Below, one piece after another: positions 9,558 to 59,701 of a stretch of 64,000 nt of DNA. Every line of letters begins with the position of its first letter. Position 1 is the first letter of the stretch. The stretch spans positions 6,067 through 70,066 of the forward strand of contig JBBILQ010000007.1 in the NCBI GenBank assembly GCA_037444845.1, written 5' to 3'. The notes under the pieces were generated by a model. That model was not told the DNA's origin. It ran no database searches and saw only the letters and a list, made by a program, of their open reading frames with translations. This DNA comes from Candidatus Aminicenantes bacterium. Lineage in GTDB: Bacteria; Acidobacteriota; Aminicenantia; Aminicenantales; UBA8522. A program made the translations under genes and the position numbers.

Positions 9558-9570
9558 AGGAGGTTTAGCC

Positions 9571-9771: not shown

Positions 9772-9785
9772 GAGGGGAATTTTTC

Positions 9786-37022: not shown

Positions 37023-37035
37023 ACCCGAAGGAGAG

Positions 37036-37848: not shown

Positions 37849-38054
37849 TTCAGGGGACACTATATTATTTTTTATGGGCGACGGAAGGGCCACTTCTCGT
37901 GGCGATTTTGTCGAATCCCTTTGCTACCAAAAATCGCTTGCATGGTATTAAAAACAGCACATGACAATGAATTGCATTTGTAATCGTCAGAACGGATGAC
38001 CTCCTGGATAAGGGTGACTTGGCTGGCGAGCACGGTGTTTTGAAGGAGAAACGG

Positions 38055-39514: not shown

Positions 39515-39519
39515 GCAGA

Positions 39520-40678: not shown

Positions 40679-40954
40679 ATGAGAGAACATCGCTATCTCA
40701 AGAATGTAACAACCCTGGCCTATGAACCGGCCAAGTGCACGGGTTGTGGTCTGTGCGAAGATGTCTGTCCGCATCGTGTATTCGGGCTTGAAAACGGCAA
40801 GGCCTGGGTCAGGGACCTCGACCTTTGCATGGAGTGCGGCGCCTGCTCTAAGAACTGTCCGTTTGCGGCGATCACTGTCCGCGCCGGAGTCGGGTGCGCC
40901 TGGGCGATCATGGCTTCTGAGCTCCGGGGAAAAAAAGAAGTCGCCTGCGGCTAA
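40679..40954 (+). CDS. hgcB: Mercury methylation 2[4Fe-4S] ferredoxin HgcB
   Basis: RYLKNVTTL, CTGCGLCEDVCPH, CMECGACSKNCP and GVGCA. Confidence 0.95.
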   Translation: MREHRYLKNVTTLAYEPAKCTGCGLCEDVCPHRVFGLENGKAWVRDLDLCMECGACSKNCPFAAITVRAGVGCAWAIMASELRGKKEVACG

Positions 40955-42372: not shown

Positions 42373-44292
42373 CTACTTCTTCGGTTCGACCGCTTCCACC
42401 CGGCCGCCCAGATGTTTGCCCAAAAACTCCTCCATGGCCCGGTAGAAGTCAAACCGGTTTTCCTCGTTCCGGAACCCGTGACCTTCGTTATCCTTGACCA
42501 TGTAAACGACTTCGATGCCGCGTTTCTTCAAGGCTTCGACAATCTGGTCTGACTCGGCCTTGTTGACGCGCGGGTCGTTCGCTCCCTGTGCGACGAGCAC
42601 GGGGACCTTGATGTTGTCGGCATGGAAGACGGGGGAAACCTTCTCATAAAGCTCCTTATCCTTTTCCGGGTCGCCGATCATCTCGTAGAACATCTGCCGC
42701 ATGGGCTCCCAGTAGGGTGGAATGGTCTTGATCAAAGTAAAAAGGTTCGAGACGCCTACATAGTCAACGCCGCAGGCGTAGAGGTCAGGCGTAAAAGCCA
42801 GCCCGGCGAGCGTCGCATACCCGCCGAACGAACCGCCGTAGATCCCAATCCGGTCGGGGTCTGCGATGCCCTGGTCGATCAGCCATTTGACGCCGTCTGT
42901 GATGTCATCCTGGATTTTGAGGCCCCACTGCTTGAACCCGGCCTCCCAGAACTTGCGGCCATAGCCTGTTGAGGTCCGGAAATTCACCTGGAGCACGGCA
43001 TAGCCGCGGTTGGCCAGAAACTGGACTTCCGGGTTGTATTCCCAGACATCCCTGGCCCAGGGGCCGCCGTGAGGGTTGACCACAACCGGGAGTTTCTTTG
43101 GTTTCAGGCCCTGAGGGAGGGTGAGATAGCCGTGGATGGTCAAGCCGTCCCGGGAGGTGTAGGTGATGGGTTTCATCTCAGCGAGCTCCGTTTCGACCAG
43201 CCATGGCCCGACATCCGCGAGTTTCCGGAAATCCGAGGTCGTGCGGTCATAGAAATAATACGACCCAAGGGTTCTGTCGCTTCCCGCATAGACCAGGGTT
43301 TTCGTCTCATCCCTGCTCGTGTTGGTCAGGGTCACTTCATAGCCGGGAAGACGGGATTCGAGTTCCTGCTGAAGCTTGGCCCTCTCGTCGTCGAAAAAAT
43401 GATACTTCCGTTTGTCGGTGTAGAAAGAGACTCCAGTGATTATTTTTCGCTTGTCTGACCTGAGCAGGTTCTCGACATCCACATCAGGATGTTCATAAAG
43501 AAGCGTCGTCAGCTTCTTTTCCTTGACGTCGTATTCATAGACGGCCGTCTTGTCGCGGCCGATGTTCGAAGCCACGTAAAGATTCTTGTTGTCATAGGTA
43601 AAGAACAGGGGCGCCAGCGTCTCCTTGAAGCTCGTCGTTACCAGCACCTCGAAATCATCCTTTTCTGTGTCCCTGCAGAGGATGCTCCGGTTGACGCCAT
43701 CGGAGGTGACGGCCACACGGAGCTTTCCGGCATGATCTGTCTCCCAGCCGACGATATTTCCCGGATTCTGGGCGATCATCTCCATTTCACCCGTGAGCAC
43801 GTTAATCCGGTAAGCGTCGAAAAAGCGCGGATCCCTCTTGTTCATGCCGGCAAGGACATGGTCGTCGTCGTCCTTGAGGTCGTCAATGAGCTGCACCCGG
43901 ACTTTCTCGAACGGCGTCAGGTCCTTTTCCTCGGAGCCGTCGATGTTCACCGCGTAGAGCCTGAAGTTCTCGTCTCCGCCCTTGTCCTGGACATAGGCGA
44001 TCCGGCCGTTGCTGGCCCAGAAATAGCCGGCGATATCTCTCTCCGTGGCGCTGGTAATGCGCGTCACCTCGTCCTCTCCGATTTTCTGGACATGGACGTT
44101 CAGGCGCGCCTGCCAGGGTTTGAGAAACGCCAGGTACTGGCCATCGGGCGAGAGCCGGAAGGACACCGACTCCGGGTTTCGGAAAAAGTCCCTCATGGGG
44201 ATAATGCGCGGCAATTTCTCTCGAGGCGCGCAGGCCGTCAGGATCGCGATCAGACAGATTCCAACCGCCGCGACATAAAGGGATTTTCTCAT
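42373..44292 (-). CDS. S9 family peptidase lipoprotein
   Basis: Lipobox LTA-C, HGGPW, GGSFGGY, GANDPRV and EGHGF. Confidence 0.92.
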   Translation of the reverse strand: MRKSLYVAAVGICLIAILTACAPREKLPRIIPMRDFFRNPESVSFRLSPDGQYLAFLKPWQARLNVHVQKIGEDEVTRITSATERDIAGYFWASNGRIAYVQDKGGDENFRLYAVNIDGSEEKDLTPFEKVRVQLIDDLKDDDDHVLAGMNKRDPRFFDAYRINVLTGEMEMIAQNPGNIVGWETDHAGKLRVAVTSDGVNRSILCRDTEKDDFEVLVTTSFKETLAPLFFTYDNKNLYVASNIGRDKTAVYEYDVKEKKLTTLLYEHPDVDVENLLRSDKRKIITGVSFYTDKRKYHFFDDERAKLQQELESRLPGYEVTLTNTSRDETKTLVYAGSDRTLGSYYFYDRTTSDFRKLADVGPWLVETELAEMKPITYTSRDGLTIHGYLTLPQGLKPKKLPVVVNPHGGPWARDVWEYNPEVQFLANRGYAVLQVNFRTSTGYGRKFWEAGFKQWGLKIQDDITDGVKWLIDQGIADPDRIGIYGGSFGGYATLAGLAFTPDLYACGVDYVGVSNLFTLIKTIPPYWEPMRQMFYEMIGDPEKDKELYEKVSPVFHADNIKVPVLVAQGANDPRVNKAESDQIVEALKKRGIEVVYMVKDNEGHGFRNEENRFDFYRAMEEFLGKHLGGRVEAVEPKK

Positions 44293-44450
44293 GGATGACC
44301 TCCTTGATGAATTTGCCAAAAAGCGAAACAGCTAATCATCGGGTAATCTGATGTCATGTTGACCTAAAAGATAACTGAGAATAGCTGGGAAGTCAAAGGG
44401 AAACACGGCCGGGTTCCGCCCTTAATTTTACTGCGCATTCAATGAACCTG

Positions 44451-44935: not shown

Positions 44936-46561
44936 TCACATAGTCCGCGGCGTGCTCACTCCCGGGCGAGATTTGAGGAAATCCTCCCAGAGATCGCTGC
45001 GGACAAAAAGGACGAGAAGGACGTTCGGCCTTAATTCATAGTATTCCGGCCGATATACCGTATTTATAGACGGTTCGAGCGCCTTTGCTTCCTCGGCGGA
45101 GGCGATGACCAGCGCGGGCCTATCAGAAAGGGTGATTTCACCAGCGTTTTGCCAATAACCCACGCTTTCGAACTTCCTTAGAGACCAGGGCAGGGGCCAG
45201 GTCTCATAGGGGCCGGCGACCACCTTGATCGGCATTTTCTTGCCTTCGGGCCGCGCAGAGGCGATGCCTTCAACCCTCTCAACAAGCTTCATGTAACCAA
45301 AGCTGGTCTGGGCGTAAACATAGGGATTTCGGGGGTCAGCAGGGAAGACGAAATTGGCCCTGTAACTCTGCCAGCCTAAGTGGGAAAACCCCGCCGCTAA
45401 AAGAAGGATTGAGATGATGCGCCAGCCCTTCTTCTGGAAGATATCAAGTATCACGGCCGCTCCAGCGCCGGCGAGGAGAATGAACCCGAGATGGAAGGAA
45501 AGAACGTTCCAGGGAGTCTTGTACGGAATAAAAGAGAACAGGGCCGTTGCGATAACCGTGTAAAAAAAGATGAACTTAAGGAAGGAACGGTCAGGATGGG
45601 AGCTCCGCCTGCGCCTGAAAGCGGCTGCGCTCCCTGCCAGAGCCAGGGCCAGAAGGAAAGCCTCGCTCCAGAGCGGTCCTCCCTTTAGCCTGGAAAAAGC
45701 GAGCGTCTTGAGATAGTAGGGCCATGGCTGAATATGGAAGGCGCTTTCTGTGGCCCGAACAAAATAAATCTTGAAGGAGAGAACAGAATCGATTACCCCT
45801 TTTGGGTTTTGAAAAAAGGACGAGAAAAGAAGGAAAATGACAAGGAGCGCTGCGCTGACGGCCAAAGCGAGATGGGAAAGACGTGGTCGATTTTCTTTCT
45901 TTCCTCGGTGTTCTTTTTCTGACTCTGGCGTGGAGATTTTTTTTATTCCCCCGTTTCTGTTCATTTTTTTCTGATGTATCGCCGTTATAAAGAATGCCGC
46001 GGCTGCGGTAGCGAAAGCGATGACCGAGGTTTCCTTGGTTGTGTACATCATCCCGGCGAAAAAGCCGGCGGCGAGCGCTGAGCCGACAGCGGGCCGCAGG
46101 ATATATTGCCAGAGCGAAGCGAGAAATCCGGTGAGGAAAAAGATGAGCAACGTTTCCTGGATGTAGAAGCGGCTAAAATAGACGAAGGCAGGCGAAACCG
46201 CCAGCCCGAGCGCACTCAACACGACAGCCGTCCGGCCGAGCGATGGCAAAAACAGAAGAAAAAGGAGCGTCATGCCGAGGCCAAAGCACGCGGGCACTAA
46301 ACGCATCGTTGTCTCGCTCTGGGAAGCCAGCGTTCCACCCGCTAAGAGGCGGGCAAAAGGCCAGGTCAGATAATACAGGCTGGGGCCATGATGATCTGTT
46401 CTGTCGTAGCGGTATTCTCCCTGCTCGAGGAGAGCGCCGAACTTAAGGGCCTGGTTGGCCTCGTCGTGGTGCATGGGCCTGAGCCCGAGAGCAGTTACCC
46501 GGAAGAGAAGCCCGGCCACAAACACCAGCGAGAAAAGCCAGAAAAAGGCCTTTTTGGTCAT
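44936..46561 (-). CDS. GT-C membrane glycosyltransferase-like (TIGR03663/Agl23 family)
   Basis: RPMHHDEA, DHHGP, YFSRFYIQE, TKET, YKTPW, NPYVYAQT and WPLPW. Confidence 0.8.
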   Translation of the reverse strand: MTKKAFFWLFSLVFVAGLLFRVTALGLRPMHHDEANQALKFGALLEQGEYRYDRTDHHGPSLYYLTWPFARLLAGGTLASQSETTMRLVPACFGLGMTLLFLLFLPSLGRTAVVLSALGLAVSPAFVYFSRFYIQETLLIFFLTGFLASLWQYILRPAVGSALAAGFFAGMMYTTKETSVIAFATAAAAFFITAIHQKKMNRNGGIKKISTPESEKEHRGKKENRPRLSHLALAVSAALLVIFLLFSSFFQNPKGVIDSVLSFKIYFVRATESAFHIQPWPYYLKTLAFSRLKGGPLWSEAFLLALALAGSAAAFRRRRSSHPDRSFLKFIFFYTVIATALFSFIPYKTPWNVLSFHLGFILLAGAGAAVILDIFQKKGWRIISILLLAAGFSHLGWQSYRANFVFPADPRNPYVYAQTSFGYMKLVERVEGIASARPEGKKMPIKVVAGPYETWPLPWSLRKFESVGYWQNAGEITLSDRPALVIASAEEAKALEPSINTVYRPEYYELRPNVLLVLFVRSDLWEDFLKSRPGVSTPRTM

Positions 46562-47244
46562 CTCGATGGAGTGCCGTAAACCTCCACCTCGACGTAGTGG
46601 TTCATGTCGTTGGCCGTATTCCCGTTTGACCAGAGCCGGACGTAGCGGGCCCTGACGCCTTTCGGGTCGAAAAGCTTTCCCTCATAAGTTTCGATGTATT
46701 CTTTATCCCGGCCGACGCCCAGCCCGGAGCTGTTGTCGTGGTCGTTGTTGAACACGGTGATAACGCCGCTGATGAAGTCTTTATCATCGGACACAAGGAC
46801 GATGATGTCGCGGTAGACGCGGGCCTGGGTGTGGTAATGCCAGACGAGGATGGCGTGGAGGGGACAAGAATCCTTGAGGTCGATCTGGACGAACTGCTTC
46901 CCGGGGCCGAGCTCAACGAAATAGCCGTCCTCCCCTGATTTTTCACCGTCGGTGACAAAAGAGATCTCTCCGATGACCGGCTGCATGTCGCTCGAGGACA
47001 CAGGCCTATTCAGGCTGAGGAGCTTTGTCCCGGCGGGAACAGAAAAAGGCCCTCTGGGTCTGCCGGTGATCCTTTCCAGGTTCGCGCTCTGGATGTTCCT
47101 GGGCGTTCCGATGAACATCGGCTTGGGAAGCTTGAGCTTGAGTTCTTCCTTCCCCAGGTCTTGAACGACAGGGGAGGAAGGGATCACGGCCGCGCTGATC
47201 AGCACAAAGGTAAGTCCGATGACAGGCGCGATTTTTCTTTTCAT
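46558..47244 (-). CDS. Secreted discoidin/F5-8 type C-like domain protein
   Basis: Signal peptide, LPKPMFIGTP, VTDGEK, VQIDL, ARYVRL and EVEVYG. Confidence 0.72.
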   Translation of the reverse strand: MKRKIAPVIGLTFVLISAAVIPSSPVVQDLGKEELKLKLPKPMFIGTPRNIQSANLERITGRPRGPFSVPAGTKLLSLNRPVSSSDMQPVIGEISFVTDGEKSGEDGYFVELGPGKQFVQIDLKDSCPLHAILVWHYHTQARVYRDIIVLVSDDKDFISGVITVFNNDHDNSSGLGVGRDKEYIETYEGKLFDPKGVRARYVRLWSNGNTANDMNHYVEVEVYGTPSR

Positions 47245-47333
47245 GGTTAACTCCTTTCCCATGAGTCCTGAGTGGGTGATGTCTGATTGCCTCTTTCCCA
47301 TTTTCACTCTCGATGGAGAAAAGACATAAGAAA

Positions 47334-48236
47334 TTATACAAGAATTTCTTTATTAAAAACACAGCAGGCCCGGGCATTTGTGATGACCAACGCCCAGACC
47401 TCGCGATGCCCGTTGCAGTACCGTCCGATCTCTTCCAGGCTCATGACCATAAAGGCTGTGGAGAGCGCATCCGCCGCGGCCGCCCGGGGATGGGAGACCC
47501 AGGCGGCCAAATACCGGTCGGCCGGATGGCCTGTCCTCGGGTCAACGATGTGAGCGCCCTTGACTTCTTTTCCTGAGCCGCTTAGGGCTCGATTCTTGAG
47601 GAAAAGGCGCATGTTCGGGCCGGCAAAACCCCGGGCCGCGCCAGCGCCGACCGGCCAGCCCTCCTCATCCGGCTTCAGGTCAGGAGCATCGCCGACAGCC
47701 AACACTGTGCTCGTGCCGCTGTGAAGGAGGACCCGGTCAATGTCCCAGTGGATGAGGGTCTCAACAGCCCGGTCAAGGGCATATCCCTTGCCGATGCCGC
47801 CGAGGTCAAGGTCGAACCAGGCCTCGCCTTGTTCGATTGGCGCCGGCTCTAAGGCCAGGTTGAAGCCGTTAGAGGAAGAGAATATCATTCTCGGCGCTTC
47901 TTCTTCGGTTTGCCTCCTTGATTTTAGTAGAGAGCGGAAGTTGATATCGAAAGCGCCGCCCGTCTCCAGGCGGATTTTTTCGGCGGCCGTCAAGCATTCG
48001 AACGTTTCGACGCCTATCCTCATTGATTCTCCGGGTTTGAGCCGGTTGATCTGGCTGACCTCGCTTGAGGCATTGAACCGGCTGAACAGGCCTTCCAGCC
48101 TTTCTACCTCGGCGAAAACAGCCTGGACGGCCTGCCGGGCATAACTCATTTCGCAGCCCGCGACCAGCGCCTCGAACGTCGTTCCCATGGCGTGGTGAGC
48201 AAAACGGCCGACGGCTGTTTCTTCTAAATCAGTCAC
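47334..48236 (-). CDS. apbE: FAD:protein FMN transferase ApbE-like, no signal peptide
   Basis: AMGT, FSRF..SSEVSQIN, GAFDI, DLGGIGKGYA.D, HIVDPRTG and ADALSTA. Confidence 0.88.
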   Translation of the reverse strand: MTDLEETAVGRFAHHAMGTTFEALVAGCEMSYARQAVQAVFAEVERLEGLFSRFNASSEVSQINRLKPGESMRIGVETFECLTAAEKIRLETGGAFDINFRSLLKSRRQTEEEAPRMIFSSSNGFNLALEPAPIEQGEAWFDLDLGGIGKGYALDRAVETLIHWDIDRVLLHSGTSTVLAVGDAPDLKPDEEGWPVGAGAARGFAGPNMRLFLKNRALSGSGKEVKGAHIVDPRTGHPADRYLAAWVSHPRAAAADALSTAFMVMSLEEIGRYCNGHREVWALVITNARACCVFNKEILV

Positions 48237-48910
48237 GATTTTTGCCGCGAAATTGCCTGATCCAGGAGAAGCATGGCCGAAAGAAGGGCGACAAGCCCGC
48301 TGTACCTGTGGACTCCGATGATGTCAACCTGCGCCTCGAACGCAAAATAGGGGAGCATAGAAAAGAGCGCCGTCAAACCGAGGGAGAGTCCGGATAAGAT
48401 AAAAAGCCAGAAAAGAAGCGACGTCAAGAGCGGGGATGGGATGTTTTTCATGGAGGAGCTCAGCGATCCGGCTGATTGTTCAGGCAAAACAAAGGGGATG
48501 TAGTCTTTGGCTCGCAGGACAGTCAGCACGGCCAGGCCGAGGACGAAGATTCCTCCGAGGCTGACATGGAGGAGAAGAGCCAGGCCGAAAAGGCCGCGCG
48601 GGCTGAGAAGAGAGAACCCAAACCCGCTGGCCGCAAGATAAATGAAGCTGAAGATAACACCGGACAGGGTCCATTTTTGCCAGGGCCGTGGATAGCAAAA
48701 CAGCCAGCCGAGATAAAACGACCGAGCTGCAACCCATCCCTCGCGCTTTAAGAACCTGGAGAAAGCCCGGCCGAGCCAGGAGAAGTAAGATGTTAGTCGA
48801 GGGAAAAACGGTTTGTTTTTTAGGCTGCCCGTTTCTTTGAAGCGGTTATAGGTCAAGAATGCCGCCAAACTCAAGCCGGCCGCAATCGAGATGATACGGA
48901 ATGCTGTCAT
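48233..48910 (-). CDS. Membrane protein, cytochrome b-like
   Basis: About 5 TM helices with His in LLHVSLG and GVHRYSG; translationally coupled to the multiheme cytochrome. Confidence 0.55.
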   Translation of the reverse strand: MTAFRIISIAAGLSLAAFLTYNRFKETGSLKNKPFFPRLTSYFSWLGRAFSRFLKREGWVAARSFYLGWLFCYPRPWQKWTLSGVIFSFIYLAASGFGFSLLSPRGLFGLALLLHVSLGGIFVLGLAVLTVLRAKDYIPFVLPEQSAGSLSSSMKNIPSPLLTSLLFWLFILSGLSLGLTALFSMLPYFAFEAQVDIIGVHRYSGLVALLSAMLLLDQAISRQKS

Positions 48911-51276
48911 TCTTGCTTGCTTCTTTCTATGAGTCCCGAGGCCCGGGCCATGCCGAGAAGGAACAAAAGCAGGACGACTGACCCAAGCACTAAGATAGAA
49001 ACGAAAAGAATTGCCTTGAATAGAGGCCGCACAGCGAATGATAAACCGAAAAACATCTGGTAAGCCCTGGCCAGGCCCGAGAAGGAGCCGGCAGAGACGA
49101 CTTTGACGCGGGATGTCTGGAGTGGCCCAGTCCCTCTGGCTTTGCGGAAAAGAAACGGAGAGTTAACCTTATGGCAGTCGCTGCATCCGTTGATGCCCAG
49201 GGATTGGCGGGCCGGCCTGACTTCGTGAGCCAGGGGCCAGGTCACGGCACTGGCCGCAGGATTATCGAAGGCGTCGAGCTTTCCGTCTTTATCGAGAGCG
49301 AACATCTTGCCGCCTGAAACGTAAACAAAGGCTGCTTTTTCACCGGGGTCTGATTGTCCTGTCTCCCGGGACAGGGCTTTGAGCACGAGCTCAACCTGTT
49401 CTTCAGTTAAGGTCTGCTCTGTTCCGACGAGTCGGCTGATTGTCCTCTGCTCAAGTTCCGGGATGAGGGGATGGAATTTTCCATCGACAAGCCAGACTAA
49501 CTGCGGCGCTGCCGTGGGCGGCCCCGGGTGGACTGATTTTTCAACGGATGTCTCAACAACCTGGTAAAGGGAGTCCCGGTTAAGGAGAGCCGGCTTACCC
49601 GGAGCATCGGGAAGGCCGGTCAGAACGTCAAGAACCCTGAAAATCCAGGCCTCGACATCTGGGTCGAGCGGCTCGGCCGCCGGGTCAAAATCAGGAACAA
49701 GAGGCGCGACCGATCCTTCTTTTTTGACCGCCCAGACAAGCTCTTTTGTCTGCAGACCAGCGGAGCTTTCGCTGAGGCTCAGGCCGCCGTCGAGGGTCAA
49801 TTCATAAATCTTACCTTCGAGGACGAGCACCGCTTTTTCATCCGGGTCGAGCTCAAGGGTCAGGGCGTTGAGGATTCTCGCCGCCCCGAGCTCTGGATGA
49901 AGGATTGCCCCTGCTGAAGCCAGAACCCTTTCAGGGTGGAGCGGTTGAAGCTTGCCGGCCTTTCGCTCCGCCCAGAAAGCCGGCCAGAACAGACGGCGCG
50001 GTGTGAGCTTGCCCCGCTCATCGCGGACATAGACCGGCTGAAGGATAGCCGGCAGGTCAGTGTGCCAGCGAGCGACACCGTAGATTCCCAGCCGGTTGGC
50101 CCGGGAAGTCCGGACCCGTGTGAGGTCGTTTTCCGGCCACGGCCCGGAATGGCAAACCGTGCAGGAGAGGCGTTTGAAATGGACGGCCGGAAACCCCTTG
50201 TGCCGCGGGAAGGGAGCGCCCAGCCGGCCGGCCAGCTTCTTTTTGCCTCCAGCCGGGTCGCCGCCCAGATGACAGCCGGAGCAGGTAAAAATGTCTTCGG
50301 AAAGGAGGGGGTTGTTGTCTTTCTCGCCCTCGTAGCCCCTGATCATGGCATGGCTGAGGTCATTGCGGTGACAGCTCACGCAGCGGAGACCCGCTGCCGT
50401 GTGGACATCGGCGTCGAATTCATATTTTTTCATCGCCGCCGGCGTCACCGAGTGACAGGAGAGGCAGCGTGAGTCGGCGGGCTCGCGCGTGATGTCGAGA
50501 AATGCCTGGTGTTTGCTGTCGAAAAGCGCGCGGTCATAGCGGACAAAAGGCGGCACAGCCCATTCCGTATCGTCAGGGTTTGGGCCGTCGATGATGTCCC
50601 AGGTCGGGCCGAGGCGCGAGGCCATTCCTCCGACCTCGCCCAGCCCGGCCGCTGCCGTGGCGGCCCAGCGGAAATTCTGGCGAAGGATCTGCTTGGCCCA
50701 CTCGCTCGGGCTTTGTTTGTTCGAGACGTTATGGCAACCCAAGCAATTGATTTCCACCTTGCCAGAGACATTCCATCGGGAGGGGGGGGTTACCTCGGCG
50801 TTAGGCGGCTCGGCGATACCGCCGCCAGTTAGGTGCCGGCCGAAAAGGAGCGTGAAATCCCAGGCGGAAAGCCCGATTTCTTCAGGATGCCATGTGCCCG
50901 GCCATTTATGGAATGAGAGAGGAAGGAGGGTTCCGGTTTTCTCGTTGACCCAGACCCAGGGCTCTCCCGGCCGGCCGGTTGCCGCCGGGCTGGCGGCCAT
51001 GAAATGGAGACCTTGACTGATGATGCTGTAGTCGTGGCAGGGAGCGCAGGTAAAACGCGAGGAGAAGGGCAACGGGTGGGATTCTGTGGGGACGATGACC
51101 TGGTCGAACTCATCCTTGAGCAGGATGAGATGGACAGGAGTCGCCCTGTTCCCATCCCAGGCCTGCTTCTTCTGTTCCTCAGCCAGAAGCATGGAACGAA
51201 CGGAAAAAACAAAACTTATTATAAATAGAGGAATAATAAGTTTGATAAACATTCTTCCGGAGGATTGCGATTTCAT
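48907..51276 (-). CDS. Heptaheme cytochrome c, OTR/MmcA-like, C-terminally membrane-anchored
   Basis: CAPCH, CLGCH, CLSCH, CVSCH, CSGCH, CTVCH and CSDCH; signal peptide; C-terminal TM helix. Confidence 0.88.
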   Translation of the reverse strand: MKSQSSGRMFIKLIIPLFIISFVFSVRSMLLAEEQKKQAWDGNRATPVHLILLKDEFDQVIVPTESHPLPFSSRFTCAPCHDYSIISQGLHFMAASPAATGRPGEPWVWVNEKTGTLLPLSFHKWPGTWHPEEIGLSAWDFTLLFGRHLTGGGIAEPPNAEVTPPSRWNVSGKVEINCLGCHNVSNKQSPSEWAKQILRQNFRWAATAAAGLGEVGGMASRLGPTWDIIDGPNPDDTEWAVPPFVRYDRALFDSKHQAFLDITREPADSRCLSCHSVTPAAMKKYEFDADVHTAAGLRCVSCHRNDLSHAMIRGYEGEKDNNPLLSEDIFTCSGCHLGGDPAGGKKKLAGRLGAPFPRHKGFPAVHFKRLSCTVCHSGPWPENDLTRVRTSRANRLGIYGVARWHTDLPAILQPVYVRDERGKLTPRRLFWPAFWAERKAGKLQPLHPERVLASAGAILHPELGAARILNALTLELDPDEKAVLVLEGKIYELTLDGGLSLSESSAGLQTKELVWAVKKEGSVAPLVPDFDPAAEPLDPDVEAWIFRVLDVLTGLPDAPGKPALLNRDSLYQVVETSVEKSVHPGPPTAAPQLVWLVDGKFHPLIPELEQRTISRLVGTEQTLTEEQVELVLKALSRETGQSDPGEKAAFVYVSGGKMFALDKDGKLDAFDNPAASAVTWPLAHEVRPARQSLGINGCSDCHKVNSPFLFRKARGTGPLQTSRVKVVSAGSFSGLARAYQMFFGLSFAVRPLFKAILFVSILVLGSVVLLLFLLGMARASGLIERSKQE

Positions 51277-52640
51277 GCGTTGAACTGTTCAGGGCGGAAA
51301 CGGAGGAGCTGGCGGGATTTGACCGCCTCGTTAACGCGCAGGACCGCCACCGCGCTTTCGTAAGCCAGCTCAGCCGGACAGGTCAGCGGCGTGCCATGGC
51401 GGATGGCATCGAAGAAGTTCTCCAGGTGGGGCTGGTGGGGCGGCTTGGCCAGCTCAACCGGCAGCGGCCAGCGGCCAGCCTCGGCCGTCACTCTGACGTC
51501 CAAGAAGATGTTGCGCGTGTCAACCTTCTGAATGGGCGGCTTTTCCGAAAGAAGAAGCCCGTCCTTAACAAGCGAATCCCACTCCGGCGCGTGCGCCTCG
51601 CGCATCGCCCAGTTTCCCCGTTCTGGAACCTCGGAGATAACCAGCGAGCCGTTTTCGCCCATGAAGGTCTCGAAAAAGCCGCCGTGCTTGGTCGTCGTCT
51701 GCACCTGGTAAAAGGCGCGTGCTGTGCCCTGCCCGGTTTCGTACTCGAAAACGGCCATGACGTTGTCGAACCATTCGCGCCCTTTGTAATAATCAGTGCC
51801 GCCGCTGGCCGAGACGGTGCTGGGGTTCGTGCCAAAAGCCCAGGAGAAGAGGTCGATCTGGTGCGACCCGAGGTCCACGATCGGTCCGCCGCCGAATTTC
51901 TTGAACCAGCGCCAGTTGCGGAACTCGAGCATCGAGCTGTAGCCGTACTTTTCGAGAGTGGCCGCGTCGATCGTGTATTTTTTGGGCCAGCCCAACATGT
52001 CGCTCCTGGCCCGATTCCATTGGGCGTAAGCTGCAGTCAGCCGGCCGAGGAGTTTTTTCTCTCGGATGAGGCGGTCGATGGCGTGGACGTAACGCGGGTT
52101 GCTCCTGCGCTGATGCCCGACCTGGAGGAGCTTCCCCGTGCGGCGGGCTGCGAGGACCATGCGCCGGGCTTGGTCGAGAGAATTGGACATCTCTTTCTCG
52201 CAGTAGACATGAAGCCCGGCCTCTAAACAGGCGATGGCCTGCTCGGCGTGCACCCAGTCGGGAGTGGCCACGATCGCGGCGTCGAGGCCTTTCTCTTTGG
52301 CCAGGAGTTCCCTGTAATCCATATAAACAGCGGGCTGCTGCCCGTACTTGTTGAGATAGCCCTTGGCGTATTCCCGGCTGTATTCCCAGATATCGCAGAC
52401 GCCGGCGAATCGGAGGCCAGGGATGCGCAGGCACGCCTCCATGAGCACGCGGCCCTGCTCTCCAGCCCCGATGAGGGCAAGGCGCAGGTCATCAGAGGGC
52501 CCGAGGGCGGTCTGGCGGCCGGCGGCGAGGGAGCCTTTCGGTAGACTTCCCTTGGCTAAAGCCAGGCCCAGGCCGGCGGAGGTCGTGGACTTCAGGAAGT
52601 CGCGGCGGCTAAGGATGTTCCTTTTTTTGGGTTTCGTCAT
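51273..52640 (-). CDS. Tat-exported Gfo/Idh/MocA oxidoreductase
   Basis: SRRDFLK, IGAGEQG, TPDWVH, YCEKEM, QVGHQRRS and DLGSHQID. Confidence 0.9.
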   Translation of the reverse strand: MTKPKKRNILSRRDFLKSTTSAGLGLALAKGSLPKGSLAAGRQTALGPSDDLRLALIGAGEQGRVLMEACLRIPGLRFAGVCDIWEYSREYAKGYLNKYGQQPAVYMDYRELLAKEKGLDAAIVATPDWVHAEQAIACLEAGLHVYCEKEMSNSLDQARRMVLAARRTGKLLQVGHQRRSNPRYVHAIDRLIREKKLLGRLTAAYAQWNRARSDMLGWPKKYTIDAATLEKYGYSSMLEFRNWRWFKKFGGGPIVDLGSHQIDLFSWAFGTNPSTVSASGGTDYYKGREWFDNVMAVFEYETGQGTARAFYQVQTTTKHGGFFETFMGENGSLVISEVPERGNWAMREAHAPEWDSLVKDGLLLSEKPPIQKVDTRNIFLDVRVTAEAGRWPLPVELAKPPHQPHLENFFDAIRHGTPLTCPAELAYESAVAVLRVNEAVKSRQLLRFRPEQFNA

Positions 52641-53629
52641 TTTGTCTCCATATCGCGGTCAAAAGCGATAACAGAGGCCGCAAAATCGATCGAGCGGACG
52701 AAATCGTGGGCTTCCTTTGCCCCATATTCCCGGTCCATGCCATTGTCCTCCCATTCGACGGAGAGCGGGCCGATGTAGTTGATGCTGTTGAGCTCGCGGA
52801 TGATCTCTTCGAAATTGACGTCGCCGTGGCCGAGGGAACGGAAGTTCCAGCCTCGTTTTAAATCCCCGAAAGGCAGATGAGACCCCAGGATGCCCGCCTT
52901 GCCGTCAAGCGTTACGGCCACATCTTTCATATGGACGTGGTAGATGCGATCGCTGAACTCGCGAATGAAGAGATGAGGCTCAAGGCCCTGCCAAGCGAGA
53001 TGGCTGGGGTCAAAATTGAACCCGAGCGTCGGGCGGTCGTTGAACTTCTCGAGAAGACGCTTGGCCGTATAGAGATCGAAAGCGATTTCGGTCGGATGGA
53101 CCTCCAGGGCAAACCGCACGCCGCAGCGGTCAAACTCATCGAGGATGGGTGTCCAGAGCTTGAAGATTTTTTCGAACCCCGCCTCGACCATCTCCTCGGC
53201 CGTCGGCGGGAAAGAATACCAGGCTTTCCAGATAGGCGACCCCATGAACCCGTTGACCACGGAGCAACCCATGGCCTTGGCCGCCCGGGCGGCGAACGTC
53301 ATCTCTTCAATCGCCCATTTTCGAATCTTTTCTGGTTTGCCCTTGACGTGGTCGGGCGCGAAAACATCTAGGCGAGCGTCGTAGCTGTCGCCGACGCACT
53401 GGCCGGCCAGATGGCTGCTGATAGCCCAGCATTTAAGGTTGTATTTCTTGAGAATCTGTTTTTTCTTCTGGACGTAGGCCGGGCTTGTGGCGGCCTTGCG
53501 GACCTCCATGTGATCGCCCCAGCATGCGACCTCAAGGCCGTCGTAGCCCCATCGGCTGGCCTTGCGGCAGATTTCCTCGAACGGCAAGTCAGCCCATTGC
53601 CCTGTGAATAAGGTTACAGGTCTTGGCAT
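52637..53629 (-). CDS. Sugar phosphate isomerase/epimerase (IolE-like TIM barrel)
   Basis: TLFTGQWADL, ALEVHP.EIA, NFDPSH, HVHMKD and SVEWED. Confidence 0.9.
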   Translation of the reverse strand: MPRPVTLFTGQWADLPFEEICRKASRWGYDGLEVACWGDHMEVRKAATSPAYVQKKKQILKKYNLKCWAISSHLAGQCVGDSYDARLDVFAPDHVKGKPEKIRKWAIEEMTFAARAAKAMGCSVVNGFMGSPIWKAWYSFPPTAEEMVEAGFEKIFKLWTPILDEFDRCGVRFALEVHPTEIAFDLYTAKRLLEKFNDRPTLGFNFDPSHLAWQGLEPHLFIREFSDRIYHVHMKDVAVTLDGKAGILGSHLPFGDLKRGWNFRSLGHGDVNFEEIIRELNSINYIGPLSVEWEDNGMDREYGAKEAHDFVRSIDFAASVIAFDRDMETK

Positions 53630-53640
53630 TTTTCCCTCCA

Positions 53641-54816
53641 TTAAAAATCAACCCACACAGCTCCTTTTCGGGAGCTTTCGACGCATTTTTCGATAAACGT
53701 CACGCCCCTCAGCCCCTCCTCGACGCCGGGAAAATCAACGTCATCGGCTGAAACGGGCTTACCAGAGAGGTGATCCCTTAGAGCTTCAATGTAGCTACTG
53801 TAAATATTGGCGAAAGCCTCGAAATAGCCCTCCGGGTGGCCGGAAGGGATCCGGCTGTATGCCTGGGCCTGCGGATACATCTTGTCCCGTCCGCGAGAGA
53901 TGACCTGGCTGGGCTGGTCGAGGTAGGAAACACGGCAGGAGTTCGGGTATTCCTGGCACCACTCGACCGAAGCCTTCGTTCCGTAAACACGGACGCGAAG
54001 CCCGTTGTCGTGGCCGATGGCGACCTGCGAGCTCCAGTACAGCCCCTTGGCGCCTCCTTTGTAGTTGACCATGATGGAAGCGTTGTCGTCGAGCTGGCGG
54101 CCCTCGACGAAGGCGTCGAGCCGGGCCAGGAGCGATTGTATTCTTAGCCCGCTCACATAGGAGACCATGTTTTCGATATGGCTGCCGATGTCGCCGACGC
54201 AGTTGGAGGCGCCTGCGTATTTCGGGTCGGTTCGCCAGGCCGCCTGCTTCTGGCCGGTTTTCTCAAGCGGCGTGGCCAGCCATTCCTGGGGATACTCGGC
54301 GCTGACAAAACGGATTTCGCCCAGGTCGCCGTTGCGGACCATCTGCCGCATGTGCTTGACGATCGGGTAGCCTGTGTACGCGTAGGTCACGCCAAAGAGG
54401 ATGCCCTTTTCCCTGGCCATACTGACGAGTTCCTCGGCGTCCCTGCTGGTCGTCGTCAGGGGCTTGTCGCAGACAACGTGGATGCCGTTTTCCATGGCCA
54501 GCCTGGCCATCGCGTAGTGTGTATTATTGGGCGTGACGATAATGACGAAATCTATTTTATCCTTGCGCCGGGCTTCAGCGGTGAGCATCTCCTCGAAATT
54601 TCTGTAGAGTCGCGATTTATCCGGGATGCCCAAGGCCTCGCCGGTGGCGAGCGTGTTTTCGTGGGATTGCGAAAAGCAGCCAGCGACGAGATCGGCCTTT
54701 CCATCCATAGCCACGGCCTTGCGATGGACATCGCCGATGAAAGCGCCCCTCCCTCCGCCGATCATCCCGTAGGTGAGCCGGCCCGCCTTCCCCAGGTTTT
54801 CTTTGCCCTCGATCAT
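53641..54816 (-). CDS. Cytoplasmic Gfo/Idh/MocA oxidoreductase
   Basis: GMIGGGRGAFIG.VH, TPN..H, CDKP, DIGSH and PSGHPEGYFEAFANIY. Confidence 0.9.
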   Translation of the reverse strand: MIEGKENLGKAGRLTYGMIGGGRGAFIGDVHRKAVAMDGKADLVAGCFSQSHENTLATGEALGIPDKSRLYRNFEEMLTAEARRKDKIDFVIIVTPNNTHYAMARLAMENGIHVVCDKPLTTTSRDAEELVSMAREKGILFGVTYAYTGYPIVKHMRQMVRNGDLGEIRFVSAEYPQEWLATPLEKTGQKQAAWRTDPKYAGASNCVGDIGSHIENMVSYVSGLRIQSLLARLDAFVEGRQLDDNASIMVNYKGGAKGLYWSSQVAIGHDNGLRVRVYGTKASVEWCQEYPNSCRVSYLDQPSQVISRGRDKMYPQAQAYSRIPSGHPEGYFEAFANIYSSYIEALRDHLSGKPVSADDVDFPGVEEGLRGVTFIEKCVESSRKGAVWVDF

Positions 54817-55055
54817 CTCCAAAACCTCCTTTCCGAATAGCGCCAGGAGGCAGTAATTCCTCAGGGTGCTTATATGATAATTAAGTCGCAAAGATTTTTC
54901 AAAAAAAGAAAGACGGAGACGGGCTTAAGGGCGGACCGTCCCCGTTAACTGTCGGCAATTCCGGGGCAAGACGAAAGGAAATGCTAAATGCGCGGAGGGT
55001 ACCTGAGTTCCTGGAACAATATCCAGAACTCAGTCCCTAGTGTCCCGTCTCATAA

Positions 55056-55209
55056 CCTGATCTATTCACAAAATGATACGATAAAACGCCCCCTCCCCTG
55101 GCGGGAGGGGATAGAGGGGAGGGGGAATCTTTGAATGATCCCCCTCACCCCGACCCTCTCCCACATGGGGAGAGGGGATTTTTTCCTTTCATTTCGTGAA
55201 TAGTCCAGG
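55056..55209 (+). mobile_element. 154-bp MITE copy 3
   Basis: Identical to copy 1; ATAA duplicated at 55052-55055 and 55210-55213. Confidence 0.92.
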
Positions 55210-55548: not shown

Positions 55549-58500
55549 TCACGTCAGAGATTCAATTTCTTTGAGCTTAATGGCCAGGCGCTTAGGGGAT
55601 ACGGGCACCGAGGTTTTAAGCTCCGGCGCGAAAAGAGAAACCTTGAATTCCTCGACCAGCCAGCCGAACTCCTCGATGGCTGCTTTCTTTTCAGGTGAGG
55701 CCGCTTGCGACGTTTTCTTTTTCAAACGCTCGATAGCCTTGATGTACGGTCTAACCTGCTCCGCCTTACGACGATCCTTTTCCAGGTCGATCCTGGCGCG
55801 TTCGGCCCGGATCTCGAGTGCTTTTAGAAAACGCGGCAGGTGGATGAGACGGTCGAGGGTGCAAATCTCCAGAAAATTCGGCGGCGCCAGGGTTTCGAGG
55901 CTTTTTCTCATTTCTTCGGCCAGCGCGGACACGGCGGGGCCGGTGCGTTGGCTCGCCGCGATCGAACCGATTGCCTCTCTGGTTTTCCGGTGCTGAGCGA
56001 GGATGGCGAAGGTCGTCTCACGGAGGAGATGGCTCTTCTCGAAGAGGCCGCGAAGCACGGTCTCGGAATAGGTTTCGATCTCCTGCGGGCTGCGGAGGTC
56101 TCTCTGGAAAACTTCCTTCCTGATCGTTTCAAACATTCCCTTTTCGACGGCTCCTTTGCCGCCGAAAAACAGGGCTGCTTTCTCGTATTCCTCAAACAGG
56201 TTAAGATACCGGCGCAGGAACTCCAGGTCCTTGGCGAACCTCGCCTCTAACAGCGCCGCGACCCCCCTGACGTGACATGATAGAGCTTCTTCTTTTGTCC
56301 TGAAGAGACTGACGTTGACACCCTTTTCTGTTGCTTCAAGAGCTGGATAAGCGAGCATGAACGGTCCGACCTGGACGCTCTCCGGAAGGGGCTGGAAATT
56401 CGACGCGGTCACGCTTCCTTTTTCCCATGCGGCGCGGGCTTTTTGCCATTCAGGGGAATCCTCGGGAACAAACGGTGTTGAACTTTCCCGGCGCAACAAG
56501 TGCAGGTTTCGGCTGGCCGCCACTTCGCGGCCCCGGTCGTCAACGACCGCCAGCCGAATTTTCAAGTGAGCAGGAACCTCAGCCCTGGCCCATTCGGTCG
56601 CGGGAATGTCCACCTGGAACTTCTTCTTGACGAAGTTGGCTAATGTTTCATAAAGAGAAAGGTCGGTTCTTTTCATCTCGCGGACGATGATGTCAACCGT
56701 GTCGGAAATGGGCATGAGTCGCTTCCGGCAATTCTTGGGAAGCCCTCTGATGAGCGCCGCAATTTTTTCCCGGAAATATCCGGGCACGGCCCAGTCCAAG
56801 GTTGTCGCCGGAATAGTGGAAAGGCCAGAATAGGGAATACGGAGCGTCGCTCCGTCGTCGGCGTCGCCGGGCGCGAACCTGTAAGATAGCTGGAAGCTGC
56901 GTTCCCCGATGGCAAGCTCATCCGGATAGCCGGCGAGCTCCTCCTCGTCGGGAAAGTCAACGAGAAGGTCCTTTTCGTCGAGTCTCAAGAAAGAATCGCT
57001 CTTTGCTTGTTTGAGACGGTTTTCGAGCCCGCGGAGGTCGAAGATTCCGGACAAACGCCGGGAGTAAAAGTCGGCGATGGTCTGCTCGTCCACCATGATG
57101 TTTCGGCGCCTCAGCTTATCCTCCATCTTGAGGATTTTCTCCTGCAAGGCGAGATTGTGCTGGAGAAAGGAGGGCGGATCCTTGATTTGTCCCTCGAGCA
57201 GAGCGTCGTTGACAAAAATTTTGTGGGCTTCCTCCGGGTTTTTTGGGCCGTAGGCCACGTCGCGGCCGGAGACAATCTCGAGGCCATGGAGAGTTACGCG
57301 TTCTTTAGCCCGGACCTCGCCGCGGTCTTTATCCCAGCGGGGCTCTGAATAAGAATACCGGCACTGGCCGCCGGCCAGGTTTTCCAGCCAGTCGGGATCG
57401 ATCCTTGCGGCCGTGCGGGCGTACAACCTCGATGTTCGGACCATCTCGGCCGCGACGATCCAAGGACGGGATTTATTGAACAACGACGAACCGGGGAAGA
57501 TCATGACCTCCCGGCCTTTCGCGGCCTGGTAGATGTTTTTCTCCTTGTGGACGGCGATGTTGGAAAGGAAACCGCTCAGGATGGCCCGGTGGATTCCGGC
57601 GTAGAGCGCCGGCGACATTTCAACTTTGTGCGTGCGCCCGGGAGGAATCTTCTGTTCCCTCAGGATGAGGATGATCTGGTCATGGACAAAAGCCCACTCC
57701 CGCATCCGGGCGAAAGACAGAAAATGGTCACGGCAGAATTTCTTCCGCCGGCTTTGAGAGCTCAGGTTCTCTTCAGCGCTGTGGTAGCTGTCCCAGATGT
57801 TGAGGAAGACAAAGAAGTCAGAGTCAGGATGAGAGAAGGCAGCCTGGGCCTGGTCGGCCTGTCTTTCTTTTTCCGGAGGCCTTTCCCGCGGGTCGCGGAT
57901 GCTCAGGGCTGAAGCGATGACAGCCACCTCCCGGAGGCAGCCTTCCTCAACCGCCTCGAGGAGCATCCGGGAGATTCGCGGGTCGAGGGGCATGGCGGCC
58001 ATCCGGCGGCCGAGGTCGGTCAGCTCGTAATTACGGGCCCGGCCGGTTATGGCTCCGAGCTCAAGGAGCGTCTCGTAGCCGTCCTTGACGGCCTTGGGCA
58101 GAGGTCGATCCACGAAAGGAAATTCTTGTGGATGACCGAGGTCGAGATAGATCATCCGCAGGATGACTTCGGCCAGGTTGGAACGAAGAATCTCGGGCGG
58201 GGTGAAGACCGGCCGGGCTTCGTAATTCTCTTCCGAGTAAAGACGGATGCAGAGGCCCTCCTGGACGCGACCGCAGCGACCTTTGCGCTGATCAGCGCTG
58301 GCTTTTGAAATCTGGCTGATGGGCAAGCTGTTGATGCGGCTTCCGGGCTGATACTGCGAGATTCGAGCCAGACCCGTGTCGATGACATACTTGATACCCG
58401 GAATGGTGAGGGACGTTTCGGCGACGTTAGTGGCCACGACGATTTTCGGCCCGCTCACGGAATAGACCCGTCCCTGCTGGGAGGCCGGGAGCCTGGCGTA

Positions 58501-59523: not shown

Positions 59524-59701
59524 GACCTTCGTCACGCTATTATACCATCCCTTTCCTTTTGTTTCTTAACCTCTCCTTCCCCTCTTGAGCAATAAAGAGG
59601 GGGCAAAAACCGGCAAGCGTCTCTGGCGCAGGCCGGGCCCCTTTCTTGATGGGTGCGGAGCGAGGACGGACGGGGAAGCGCCGTGACAGGACCCGTTCAA
59701 A

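Follow-up and report, generated by a model that had tools for sequence, protein, structure and literature searches.

The subject of this analysis is an eight-gene operon on the minus strand of a 64,000-nucleotide stretch of DNA, here called the window, which comes from contig 7 of a metagenome-assembled genome (MAG) of a Candidatus Aminicenantes bacterium. The MAG measures 2.75 Mb and is 94% complete. Read in the direction of transcription, the genes encode a Gfo/Idh/MocA-type oxidoreductase (gfoA), a TIM-barrel protein, a second Gfo enzyme with a twin-arginine translocation (Tat) signal (Tat-Gfo), a heptaheme cytochrome c (CYT), a membrane protein with five helices (MEMB), an ApbE protein, a protein of 249 residues (p249) and a GT-C protein (Table 1). 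An earlier reading of the bare letters (the sequence-only reading) had proposed that sugar oxidation by the Gfo enzymes is wired to the cytochrome. What is found here is a real, conserved feature, and it is more specific than that proposal: the conserved core consists of Tat-Gfo, the cytochrome c and MEMB, with p249, GT-C and ApbE as a looser trio.

The operon

The eight open reading frames (ORFs) lie head to tail, with junction gaps of -1, -4, -4, -4, -4, +26 and -4 bases and a stop/start overlap at six of the seven junctions. The sequence-only reading had described this arrangement, and it was borne out apart from small details. Its assignments of two Gfo proteins, a TIM barrel (AP_endonuc_2), a Tat signal, ApbE and GT-C were likewise confirmed by Pfam and NCBIfam. 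The gfoA frame reaches 54891 from a TTG codon, but the start conserved in 21 aligned relatives, which begin 'MIEG', is the ATG at 54816, where translation most likely begins and where the sequence-only reading had put the end of the stretch. The sigma-70-like match ahead of gfoA comes from a consensus scan of the region that returned 6 sites where 3.3 were expected. The sequencing runs that contain the stretch comprise one subsurface metagenome DNA run, maybe the source of this DNA, and no RNA run.

Table 1. Features of the operon and of its surroundings, in window positions
Feature	Positions	Strand	Assignment and remarks
gfoA (Gfo)	53641-54816	-	PF01408, PF22725 and PF02894 above cut-off; cytoplasmic, no signal peptide
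TIM barrel	52637-53641	-	PF01261; xylose-isomerase-like, cytoplasmic
Tat-Gfo, 455 residues	51273-52640	-	PF01408, PF02894 and TIGR01409 above cut-off
CYT, heptaheme cytochrome c, 789 residues	48907-51276	-	seven CxxCH; signal peptide; C-terminal membrane helix
MEMB, five-helix membrane protein, 225 residues	48233-48910	-	FdnI the top fold match of the model; no Pfam or NCBIfam family above cut-off
ApbE	47334-48236	-	PF02424; no signal peptide
p249, 249 residues	46558-47307	-	no Pfam match at E <= 0.01
GT-C	44936-46561	-	TIGR03663 (Agl23) above cut-off
Sigma-70-like promoter match TTGAAA-17-TATCAT, 10/12	54874-54902	-	just upstream of gfoA; consensus match
Terminator-like hairpin	55089-55111		closes the preceding HrpA gene
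Second exported 3-keto-glycoside set: Tat-Gfo, PF06439 lipoprotein, ThuA with signal peptide	35655-38864	+	6-9 kb from the operon
H+-pyrophosphatase	31760-33829	+	
CdhD-like protein	39502-40665	+	
Class-V aminotransferase	40951-42261	-	
S9 prolyl oligopeptidase	42373-44319	-	
HrpA-like helicase	55549-59535	-	

Conservation and extent of the module

Cytochrome relatives at 43-86% identity are encoded at 32 loci in the genome collection. The closest of them carry the label Aminicenantes, and some have loose labels ('Clostridiales', 'Eubacteriales'). All eight genes occur in the order of the window at 15 of the 32 loci; another 15 are interrupted by contig ends and hold a contiguous subset with the order unchanged. 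The two that deviate are L019, in which the first two genes (Gfo and TIM) and the membrane protein find no match, and L028, from a Sumerlaeota-labelled MAG, which keeps Tat-Gfo, CYT, MEMB, p249, GT-C and ApbE in a rearranged order and lacks orthologs of the Gfo and TIM genes. At L028 the cytochrome match (7787-10174) is divided over two ORFs, 7787-9559 and 9584-10174, possibly through a frameshift, a stop or an assembly error. A Tat-Gfo ortholog lies upstream of the cytochrome at every one of the 27 genome loci that have upstream sequence, and there Tat-Gfo, CYT and MEMB are neighbours.

How far does this arrangement extend beyond the lineage? A pattern built from 24 aligned short forms of the cytochrome was used to fetch 80 metagenome loci, the ORFs of which were scored with hidden Markov models (HMMs) of the Aminicenantes proteins. 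Compared with the window proteins, those of these distant loci have an identity of about 38% for CYT and about 53% for Tat-Gfo. An ortholog-grade Tat-Gfo sits directly upstream of CYT at 54 of the 55 testable loci, with HMM scores above 450 compared with 50-120 for neighbouring Gfo paralogs, and MEMB sits directly downstream at 62 of 66. Within 10 kb downstream of CYT, among 25 testable loci, p249 is present at 19, GT-C at 18 and ApbE at 17. Orthologs of the cytoplasmic Gfo and of the TIM barrel occur at only 2 of 21 testable loci each; therefore the first two genes are outside the conserved core and are a lineage-specific addition. The expectation of the sequence-only reading that homologs of the cytochrome adjoin a Tat-Gfo, a cytochrome b-like protein and ApbE thus holds far beyond the lineage, but gfoA and its TIM-barrel neighbour do not belong to what is shared. 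The discoidin protein (p249) and GT-C, which that reading had left unexplained, turned out to be core members.

The cytochrome family is large. Clustered at 50% identity, the matches of a full HMMER scan form at least 734 clusters at E <= 1e-3, of which 330 reach E <= 1e-30. Many members have 600-690 residues and lack part of the central region, and names on the short forms are Calditrichota and KSB1; source labels among the relatives are Aminicenantes, Sumerlaeota, Calditrichota and KSB1. The gene set is conserved in several lineages of uncultured bacteria from sediments. Within the phylum of the window, 10 of 301 sampled genomes (that of the window included) have a cytochrome match at E <= 1e-30, and these fall in scattered families. 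The module is patchy across the phylum, as expected of an accessory function. Relatives that carry a name are all annotated 'hypothetical protein' or 'cytochrome c3 family protein'.

Some distant loci carry additional genes. Tandem arrays of four or five Gfo paralogs, all with an RR motif (by regular expression), stand upstream of the conserved Tat-Gfo at L079, L082, L087 and L089, which suggests that several exported dehydrogenases may share one cytochrome. A membrane protein of 450-500 residues recurs between MEMB and p249 (L087:13833-15245 and relatives at 21 metagenome and 3 genome loci). Its matches are at most faint, to a cytosine/purine permease (E 6.1e-7 in one of five scanned), and it is probably a transporter of the pathway. 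At L050:3984-8677 the same position is taken by two proteins with type-IX-secretion C-terminal sorting domains, one BNR/sortilin-like and one a beta-helix; the sorting domains hint at an FCB-group host of that locus.

The exported dehydrogenase and its predicted docking on the cytochrome

Tat-Gfo matches PF01408 with 68.4 bits (cut-off 24) and PF02894 with 54.7 bits (cut-off 22.9). Its N-terminal signal has the motif RRDFLK and scores 20.0 bits with TIGR01409 (cut-off 16.7); the Pfam TAT_signal model gives 18.2, under its cut-off of 22.7. An RR motif was found by regular expression in 56 of 56 complete orthologs, and GxGxxG (G50, G52, G55) and the Asp after strand 2 are invariant in 42. By these motifs the protein is assigned as a Tat-exported, nicotinamide adenine dinucleotide (NAD)-type Gfo/Idh/MocA dehydrogenase.

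A complex of the dehydrogenase with the cytochrome was predicted for a complete ortholog pair, that of locus L036, from alignments made for this analysis. The two proteins are 53% (Tat-Gfo) and 38% (cytochrome) identical to those of the window. The median score was 0.78 on a roughly calibrated scale and the best of three controls 0.00; of 80 solved complexes 58 attain this mark, and of 110 mismatched pairs 2 do so. Contacts agree between the runs to at least 94%, and partner values of the predicted local distance difference test (pLDDT) are 88 or higher. On the cytochrome the predicted interface comprises residues 57-67, 160-169 and 224-238 (window numbering), near hemes 1 and 2, and on Tat-Gfo residues 61-71, 91-99, 210-222 and 318-322. 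We know of no solved Gfo-cytochrome complex that the predictor could have remembered, though no search aimed at one was made. Wiring of Gfo to the cytochrome is thus supported both by synteny and by the predicted complex.

The heptaheme cytochrome c

The CxxCH motifs of CYT are at residues 77, 178, 271, 299, 332, 372 and 698. The protein starts with a signal peptide and has a hydrophobic helix near its C-terminus (residues 756-774), and the count of seven hemes that had been given for this 789-residue protein is correct. Of the four motif strings quoted with it, three are literally present; the fourth, AHEV.P...L..CxxCH, agrees in its residues but is in the protein longer by one before the L and by two before the C. 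An alignment of 56 diverse sequences reveals further conserved histidines, H49, H91, H292, H309 and H366, with H359 and H684 nearly invariant, and 24 short forms also have seven invariant extra His. By sequence, the seven CxxCH motifs together with the seven conserved extra His are consistent with seven bis-His hemes and an electron wire, and not with an open catalytic heme.

The AlphaFold2 (AF2) model of CYT has a pLDDT of 85.4 and a predicted template modelling score of 0.84. Compared with 48,161 chains by VIA-align, its top match, and the only one at Z >= 8, is 1sp3_A, octaheme tetrathionate reductase (OTR), at Z 8.2, where Z 7-8 is the typical best value for unmatched models. The alignment covers 295 of 436 residues (model residues 46-747) at 19% identity and a root-mean-square deviation of 4.4; other rows match the terminal helix only. 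Foldseek against the PDB gave no match at E <= 0.001, and its top rows are PCNA/clamp chains with TM scores of about 0.06. The OTR profile TIGR04315 detects the C-terminal heme motif only (17.2 bits, E 0.0021; cut-off 375), and NrfA nitrite reductases turn up faintly (E 1.4e-4) when PDB sequences are searched with a profile. The likeness to OTR that the sequence-only reading had seen in the motifs is in line with the single best fold match and the faint profile match. Judged from the model, the heme core would be OTR/NrfA-like and is interrupted by an alpha/beta insert. This insert (about residues 410-680, some 270 residues) is modelled as three to four repeats of a four-strand meander and two helices. 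It varies in length, and is shorter in the short forms of about 620-650 residues than in the long forms of about 780.

The membrane protein MEMB

MEMB contains only two histidines, H115 and H201, and both are invariant in 32 sequences, as are S95, G96, W168, M185, P187 and Q194. Its 39 relatives include some that carry PF01292. At E <= 1 this family is detected in 30 of 32 aligned relatives (best 5.2e-8), and the window protein itself scores 14.3 bits, under the cut-off of 30.1. For its AF2 model (pLDDT 86.5) the top Foldseek match is FdnI, 1kqf_C (probability 1.00, TM 0.51, E 5.3e-3), followed by HyaC and CybB chains, all at E > 0.001. The positive-inside rule and the model helices place both His within about 10 residues of the periplasmic helix ends, and a single His/His-ligated heme b near the periplasmic face is likely on this model. 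PF01292 cytochromes have four His ligands for two b hemes. MEMB would then resemble a divergent FdnI/HyaC-type cytochrome b, and its earlier description as His-bearing and cytochrome b-like finds support. Its assignment as a DUF4405- or FezC-like dimeric cytochrome was considered and rejected, since both Pfam and the fold favour PF01292/FdnI.

p249 and GT-C

The most conserved of the accessory proteins is p249, at 65-91% identity across the Aminicenantes loci, and its gene is always beside that of GT-C. Distant orthologs have a lipobox or signal peptides, and Ser/Thr/Pro-rich linkers. Did the name discoidin fit this protein? ESM-Atlas scores it 0.98 to F5/8-type-C clusters, and 27 of 30 hits fall in clusters where 13-58% of members carry PF00754 or PF22633; this is a lead only, and Pfam shows no match at E <= 0.01. 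The label Verrucomicrobiota arises only from these ESM-Atlas look-alikes. p249 is treated here as a candidate exported or membrane-anchored protein with an F5/8-type-C-like (discoidin-like) domain.

GT-C scores 184.6 bits with TIGR03663 (cut-off 126.25) and matches PF02366 at 3e-10. TIGR03663 proteins carry, not far from the N-terminus, a DE dipeptide and an HGP tripeptide. The module protein has both in its first outward loop, where 'RPmHhDEAnqA' and 'hHGP' are conserved in 23 sequences. The coordinates of GT-C and ApbE overlap in several distant loci.

Substrate chemistry and the 3-keto-glycoside context

In the PDB gfoA matches 7d5m (6.4e-86) and the uncharacterised 3v5n (1.9e-120), and the enzyme is probably a 3-keto-sugar reductase. 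The TIM barrel (PF01261, 145.6 bits, cut-off 31.1, 2.8e-42) matches the uncharacterised 2zds (4.9e-112) and, over residues 22-328, 8ro4, a '2-hydroxy-3-keto-glucal hydratase' (1.1e-44). It is likely a hydratase or lyase acting on 3-keto-sugar derivatives, and the link of TIM barrels to 3-keto-sugars drawn in the sequence-only reading has its counterpart in 8ro4. In Agrobacterium, according to the available parts of PMC10628242, the hydration of 2-hydroxy-3-keto-glucal is catalysed by AtHYD and the reduction of 3-keto-glucose, at the expense of NADH, by a Gfo enzyme, which turns the elimination product into glucose.

Relatives of the PF06439 3-keto-disaccharide hydrolases were found with two queries at 36 and 39 of the 80 metagenome loci and at 11 and 10 of the 32 genome loci. 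Pfam identifies among the neighbours at distant loci PF06439 domains alone or fused to TIM barrels, ThuA and HEAT repeats, as well as major facilitator superfamily and other permeases and cytoplasmic Gfo proteins. A loose regular expression finds an RR motif in each of the 61 neighbouring Gfo paralogs whose N-terminus is complete. Support for 3-keto-glycosides as the substrate class comes from gene context only.

The window itself holds a second exported 3-keto-glycoside set (Table 1). Its Pfam matches are PF01408/PF19051 for the Tat-Gfo, PF06439 at 3.8e-43 for the protein at 36898-37848 and PF06283 at 2e-50 for ThuA. The N-terminus of this Tat-Gfo reads 'TITRREFIGK', and that of the PF06439 protein is lipobox-like. 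Directly upstream of Tat-Gfo at L044:5218-8670, L038:4043-7567 and L091:1465-5550 (also at L045, L046, L054 and L069) are proteins of 1150-1360 residues composed of HEAT repeats and one or two 3-keto-disaccharide hydrolase domains, to which ThuA is added at L091. We know of no earlier example of this HEAT-hydrolase architecture. The remaining flanking genes in Table 1 are apparently unrelated to the module; the HrpA-like assignment is a reading of the translation only.

A proposed electron path

The interpretation that we favour, with a probability of about 0.5, is that the module forms a membrane-attached, respiratory-type periplasmic glycoside dehydrogenase complex. The Tat system would export the 455-residue Gfo enzyme folded and with NAD bound, and this enzyme would oxidize a sugar or glycoside in the periplasm, most likely at C3. 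Tat-Gfo is predicted to dock on the outward-facing heme domain of the C-terminally anchored CYT. Electrons would travel along the chain of seven bis-His hemes as far as the one closest to the membrane, would pass to the single periplasm-side heme b of MEMB and may go onward to a membrane or external acceptor. In this lineage, the cytoplasmic TIM hydratase and Gfo reductase would turn the 3-keto-sugar products back into ordinary sugar, in the manner of the AtHYD/Gfo pair of Agrobacterium. p249, the Agl23-type GT-C and a dedicated cytoplasmic ApbE belong to the same conserved module.

The flavin question and other points against the path

Several findings weigh against this path, and some of them concern its start. 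How would the hydride of a bound NADH reach the hemes? Flavin is the chemically obvious mediator between two-electron NADH and one-electron hemes. Transfer from one to the other calls for a flavin or a similar mediator, and we know of no precedent for a direct hydride-to-heme transfer. The sequence-only reading had the electrons pass 'via flavin'. The module ApbE is a member of its family (PF02424, 139.8 bits, cut-off 25.6, 1.5e-40), and a 'KG.Hi.dP' stretch, with the conserved His of the 'H-I-x-D-P' stretch of ApbE proteins, is kept in 27 sequences. It has neither a signal peptide nor a lipobox, the first possible start reading MTDLEETAVGRF, and no hydrophobic N-terminus is present in the 21 distant orthologs examined. 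By sequence, then, the module ApbE is cytoplasmic. A protein with no signal peptide cannot work in the periplasm in the manner of classical ApbE, and a cytoplasmic one is separated by the membrane from a Sec-exported cytochrome; it would reach only the Tat substrate or the cytoplasmic loops of membrane proteins.

None of the six core families keeps a [S/T]G[A/G/S][S/T] window (at >= 60% per position, 47-111 sequences each), and Pfam finds no FMN_bind domain in the module proteins. With no conserved flavinylation motif and a signal-less ApbE both here and at 21 distant loci, the flavin step of the sequence-only reading is not sustained. The one literal match in the window proteins is SGGT, in the ortholog-specific 'ASGG.DYY' stretch of Tat-Gfo. 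As a candidate for flavinylation it was dismissed, since a T or S closes it in only 40 of 57 distant orthologs and 5 of 28 Aminicenantes sequences.

A second ApbE is encoded elsewhere in the genome, at G000:C9:26202-30505, about 3.4 kb from an FMN_bind gene, and probably belongs to an Rnf- or Nqr-type cluster with a flavin transferase of its own. The operon ApbE is therefore a dedicated paralog. It is improbable, in our view, that it supplies the two-to-one-electron converter, either by placing flavin mononucleotide (FMN) non-canonically on the folded Gfo in the cytoplasm before Tat transport or through a lipid-linked flavin-phosphate route together with GT-C and p249. By the former, Tat-Gfo would be without precedent both as a flavinylated member of the Gfo family and as an ApbE substrate that receives its flavin before Tat transport; in the latter, flavin phosphate would cross the membrane and be fixed to a periplasmic protein. 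Either would create an NAD-flavin-heme chain outside the cytoplasm and would explain why the trio travels with the cytochromes.

Other points against the path concern the evidence for its parts. The complex was predicted for orthologs, not for the window pair, and with hemes and NAD absent. The predicted interface is no more conserved than the remainder of either protein (0.40 vs 0.57 in CYT, 0.74 vs 0.77 in Tat-Gfo), and conservation thus lends the interface no support. As the top tblastn matches of a single pattern scan, the 80 metagenome loci are not an unbiased sample. No equivalog indicates the substrate of Tat-Gfo: its best NCBIfam match, the BT_2158 equivalog NF058561, reaches 82.2 bits (2.9e-23; residues 11-279) where 750 are needed, and its best PDB match, DgpA (1.6e-19), covers the Rossmann part only. 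At the far end of the path, the 94%-complete MAG has no cytochrome bd, heme-copper oxidase, MqnA or MenB above cut-off, an absence that is not proof, and a MenA-like gene falls just under its own (93.6 bits vs 102.15). The earlier phrase 'on to the quinone pool' accordingly finds no backing in this genome. The MAG does encode other multiheme cytochromes, three in number, and it has a gene for cytochrome c assembly.

Alternative explanations

Could the electrons flow the other way? Electrons from the membrane or cytoplasm would then enter at the b-type protein, cross the seven hemes and maintain the NAD of the exported Gfo in its reduced state, and the enzyme would reduce a keto-sugar or another periplasmic oxidant as the electron sink of a fermenter. 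The MAG, with no oxidases or proven quinone pathway and with other multiheme cytochromes, would suit such a life; the nearby exported Gfo and ThuA genes could make the 3-keto-sugars, and the protein sequences are silent on direction. Reduction of NAD+ (about -320 mV, a textbook value) by bis-His c hemes and a b heme would however be uphill unless their potentials are very low, and the cytoplasmic Gfo and TIM pair already offers a reductive route. We consider this reversal unlikely. A dehydrogenase of this fold may also release no electrons at all, which is a further point against the proposed path. GH109 enzymes are exported, Gfo-fold and redox-neutral. Tat-Gfo has a weak match to the GH109 chain 6t2b. 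GFOR, in the available part of PMC8121099, is a Tat-exported example of the same behaviour. Tat-Gfo might accordingly be a redox-neutral, NAD-dependent glycosidase or transhydrogenase of GH109 or GFOR type, next to cytochromes c and b that form a separate, co-inherited respiratory unit, and the missing flavin site and the ordinary conservation of the interface agree with this. The adjacency of the genes tells a different story. It holds at 54 of 55 and 27 of 27 loci under Aminicenantes, Sumerlaeota, Calditrichota and KSB1 labels, with frequent stop/start overlap; the adjacent Tat-Gfo is a distinct, highly conserved ortholog, set apart by its HMM scores from the paralogs around it; and the complex prediction separates the pair from its controls. 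A redox-neutral enzyme beside unconnected cytochromes is thus rather unlikely.

The looser trio invites an explanation centred on the envelope, in which the module would modify one of its glycans or glycolipids. DprE1 oxidizes decaprenyl-phospho-ribose outside the cytoplasm. By that parallel, GT-C would handle a polyprenyl-phosphate sugar, p249 would bind this sugar, the exported Gfo would oxidize it outside the cytoplasm and the cytochromes would take the electrons. In favour of this, the core members p249, GT-C and ApbE show translational coupling (-4 here, and the GT-C/ApbE overlap in several distant loci), and TIGR03663 is above cut-off with its DE and HGP motifs in place. The neighbourhoods are mainly catabolic, with 3-keto-disaccharide hydrolases, transporters and arrays of Tat-Gfo paralogs, and among 18 annotated distant-locus proteins there were no nucleotide-sugar or polyprenyl-phosphate glycosyltransferases; modification of the envelope seems to us a quite unlikely purpose for the module. 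Least probable is that CYT is itself a terminal reductase like OTR, acting on tetrathionate, nitrite or hydroxylamine and fed by Gfo or MEMB. OTR is its best fold match and it has faint profile matches to NrfA (E 1.4e-4), but it has seven hemes rather than eight, its seven conserved distal His leave no obviously open heme, it contains no CxxCK, and it remains at 17 bits where TIGR04315 asks for 375.

Comparison with known systems

Which parts of the proposed complex have been seen before? Periplasmic glycoside 3-dehydrogenases linked to cytochrome c are described in the accessible parts of PMC8121099 (LacABC, ThuAB) and PMC10628242 (a FAD-type GlycDH, dependent on flavin adenine dinucleotide, with a Tat partner). 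Like these, the module would convert a glycoside to a 3-keto-glycoside outside the cytoplasm and pass electrons to a cytochrome c, and genes for 3-keto-glycoside hydrolases, eliminases, hydratases or reductases are found nearby. Unlike them, as far as those parts go, its dehydrogenase is of the NAD-type Gfo/Idh/MocA family and not a FAD enzyme, its cytochrome is a membrane-anchored, OTR-like heptaheme protein with a b-type partner, and ApbE, GT-C and a discoidin lipoprotein accompany it. BT2158 of Bacteroides thetaiotaomicron has in common with the module enzyme a Tat signal, the Gfo fold and an association with PF06439 3-keto-disaccharide hydrolases; Tat-Gfo is not its equivalog (82 vs 750 bits), and the passages available on BT2158 mention no cytochrome partner. 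In those of PMC8121099 its electron acceptor is unidentified, and 'another as yet unidentified sugar' is proposed. Periplasmic sugar dehydrogenases that feed cytochrome c, and Tat-exported Gfo enzymes with a bound cofactor, are thus already known (available parts of PMC8121099 and PMC10628242).

The two cytochromes also have known counterparts. Octaheme reductases of TIGR04315 have eight c-type hemes, one with a distal Lys ligand. CYT has the OTR of Shewanella oneidensis (1sp3) as the best structural match of its heme core (Z 8.2) and resembles it faintly in the C-terminal heme motif; it differs in its seven hemes, the insert of about 270 residues, the C-terminal membrane helix, seven distal His, the lack of CxxCK and an identity of only 19%. 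MEMB is like FdnI, HyaC and CybB (PF01292; 1kqf_C, 4gd3_A, 5oc0) in the helical bundle of its model, in the His of its transmembrane helices and in having a periplasmic redox partner. It differs in that it has two conserved His, and hence one heme site, where those proteins have four His for two hemes; amphipathic helices on the cytoplasmic side and one more helix at the N-terminus are added, and it scores below the Pfam cut-off.

ApbE-associated extracytosolic clusters (Meheust et al. 2021 preprint; Huang et al. 2024, PMC11334425) similarly combine ApbE with a small transmembrane b-type cytochrome and extracytoplasmic redox proteins. In the portions of these sources that were available, the module differs from them by its signal-less ApbE, by the lack of a [S/T]GA[S/T] motif or FMN_bind in its proteins, and by a b-type protein that is PF01292-like and not DUF4405, PepSY or MsrQ. 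The survey in the 2021 preprint, by its available text, removed ApbE genes without signal peptides beforehand, and the module would therefore have escaped it. The Agrobacterium tumefaciens AtHYD and Gfo pair (PMC10628242, in part; 8ro4) resembles the first two genes of the operon, the TIM barrel of which matches 8ro4 and adjoins a cytoplasmic Gfo; the closest structure to the window protein is however the uncharacterised 2zds, and the pair is outside the conserved core. In the literature searched, supplements excluded, no description was found of a Gfo enzyme combined with an anchored OTR-like heptaheme cytochrome and an FdnI-like one-heme protein. Nor was the ApbE/GT-C/discoidin trio described there with such cytochromes, the supplementary cluster tables of the flavinylation papers being excluded. 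For the terms searched, the available text of the Caldithrix genome paper yields nothing on a cluster of this kind.

Significance of the module

The module, proposed to be respiratory-type and glycoside-oxidizing, is real and apparently undescribed. A cytoplasmic ApbE, a GT-C protein and a discoidin lipoprotein that travel with the cytochromes constitute a second, independent puzzle, and there is a small chance that behind it lies something new in category. Among bacteria that degrade polysaccharides, exported dehydrogenases of the Gfo family that carry a nicotinamide cofactor are very common. How are these enzymes re-oxidized outside the cytoplasm? For one large family, the module offers an answer that can be tested. 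If sugars reduce the hemes, the module would represent a new link, in the subsurface and in anoxic sediments, between the degradation of glycans and electron acceptors that are external or in the membrane, as well as a new type of enzyme-cytochrome pair for bio-electrochemical sugar sensing.

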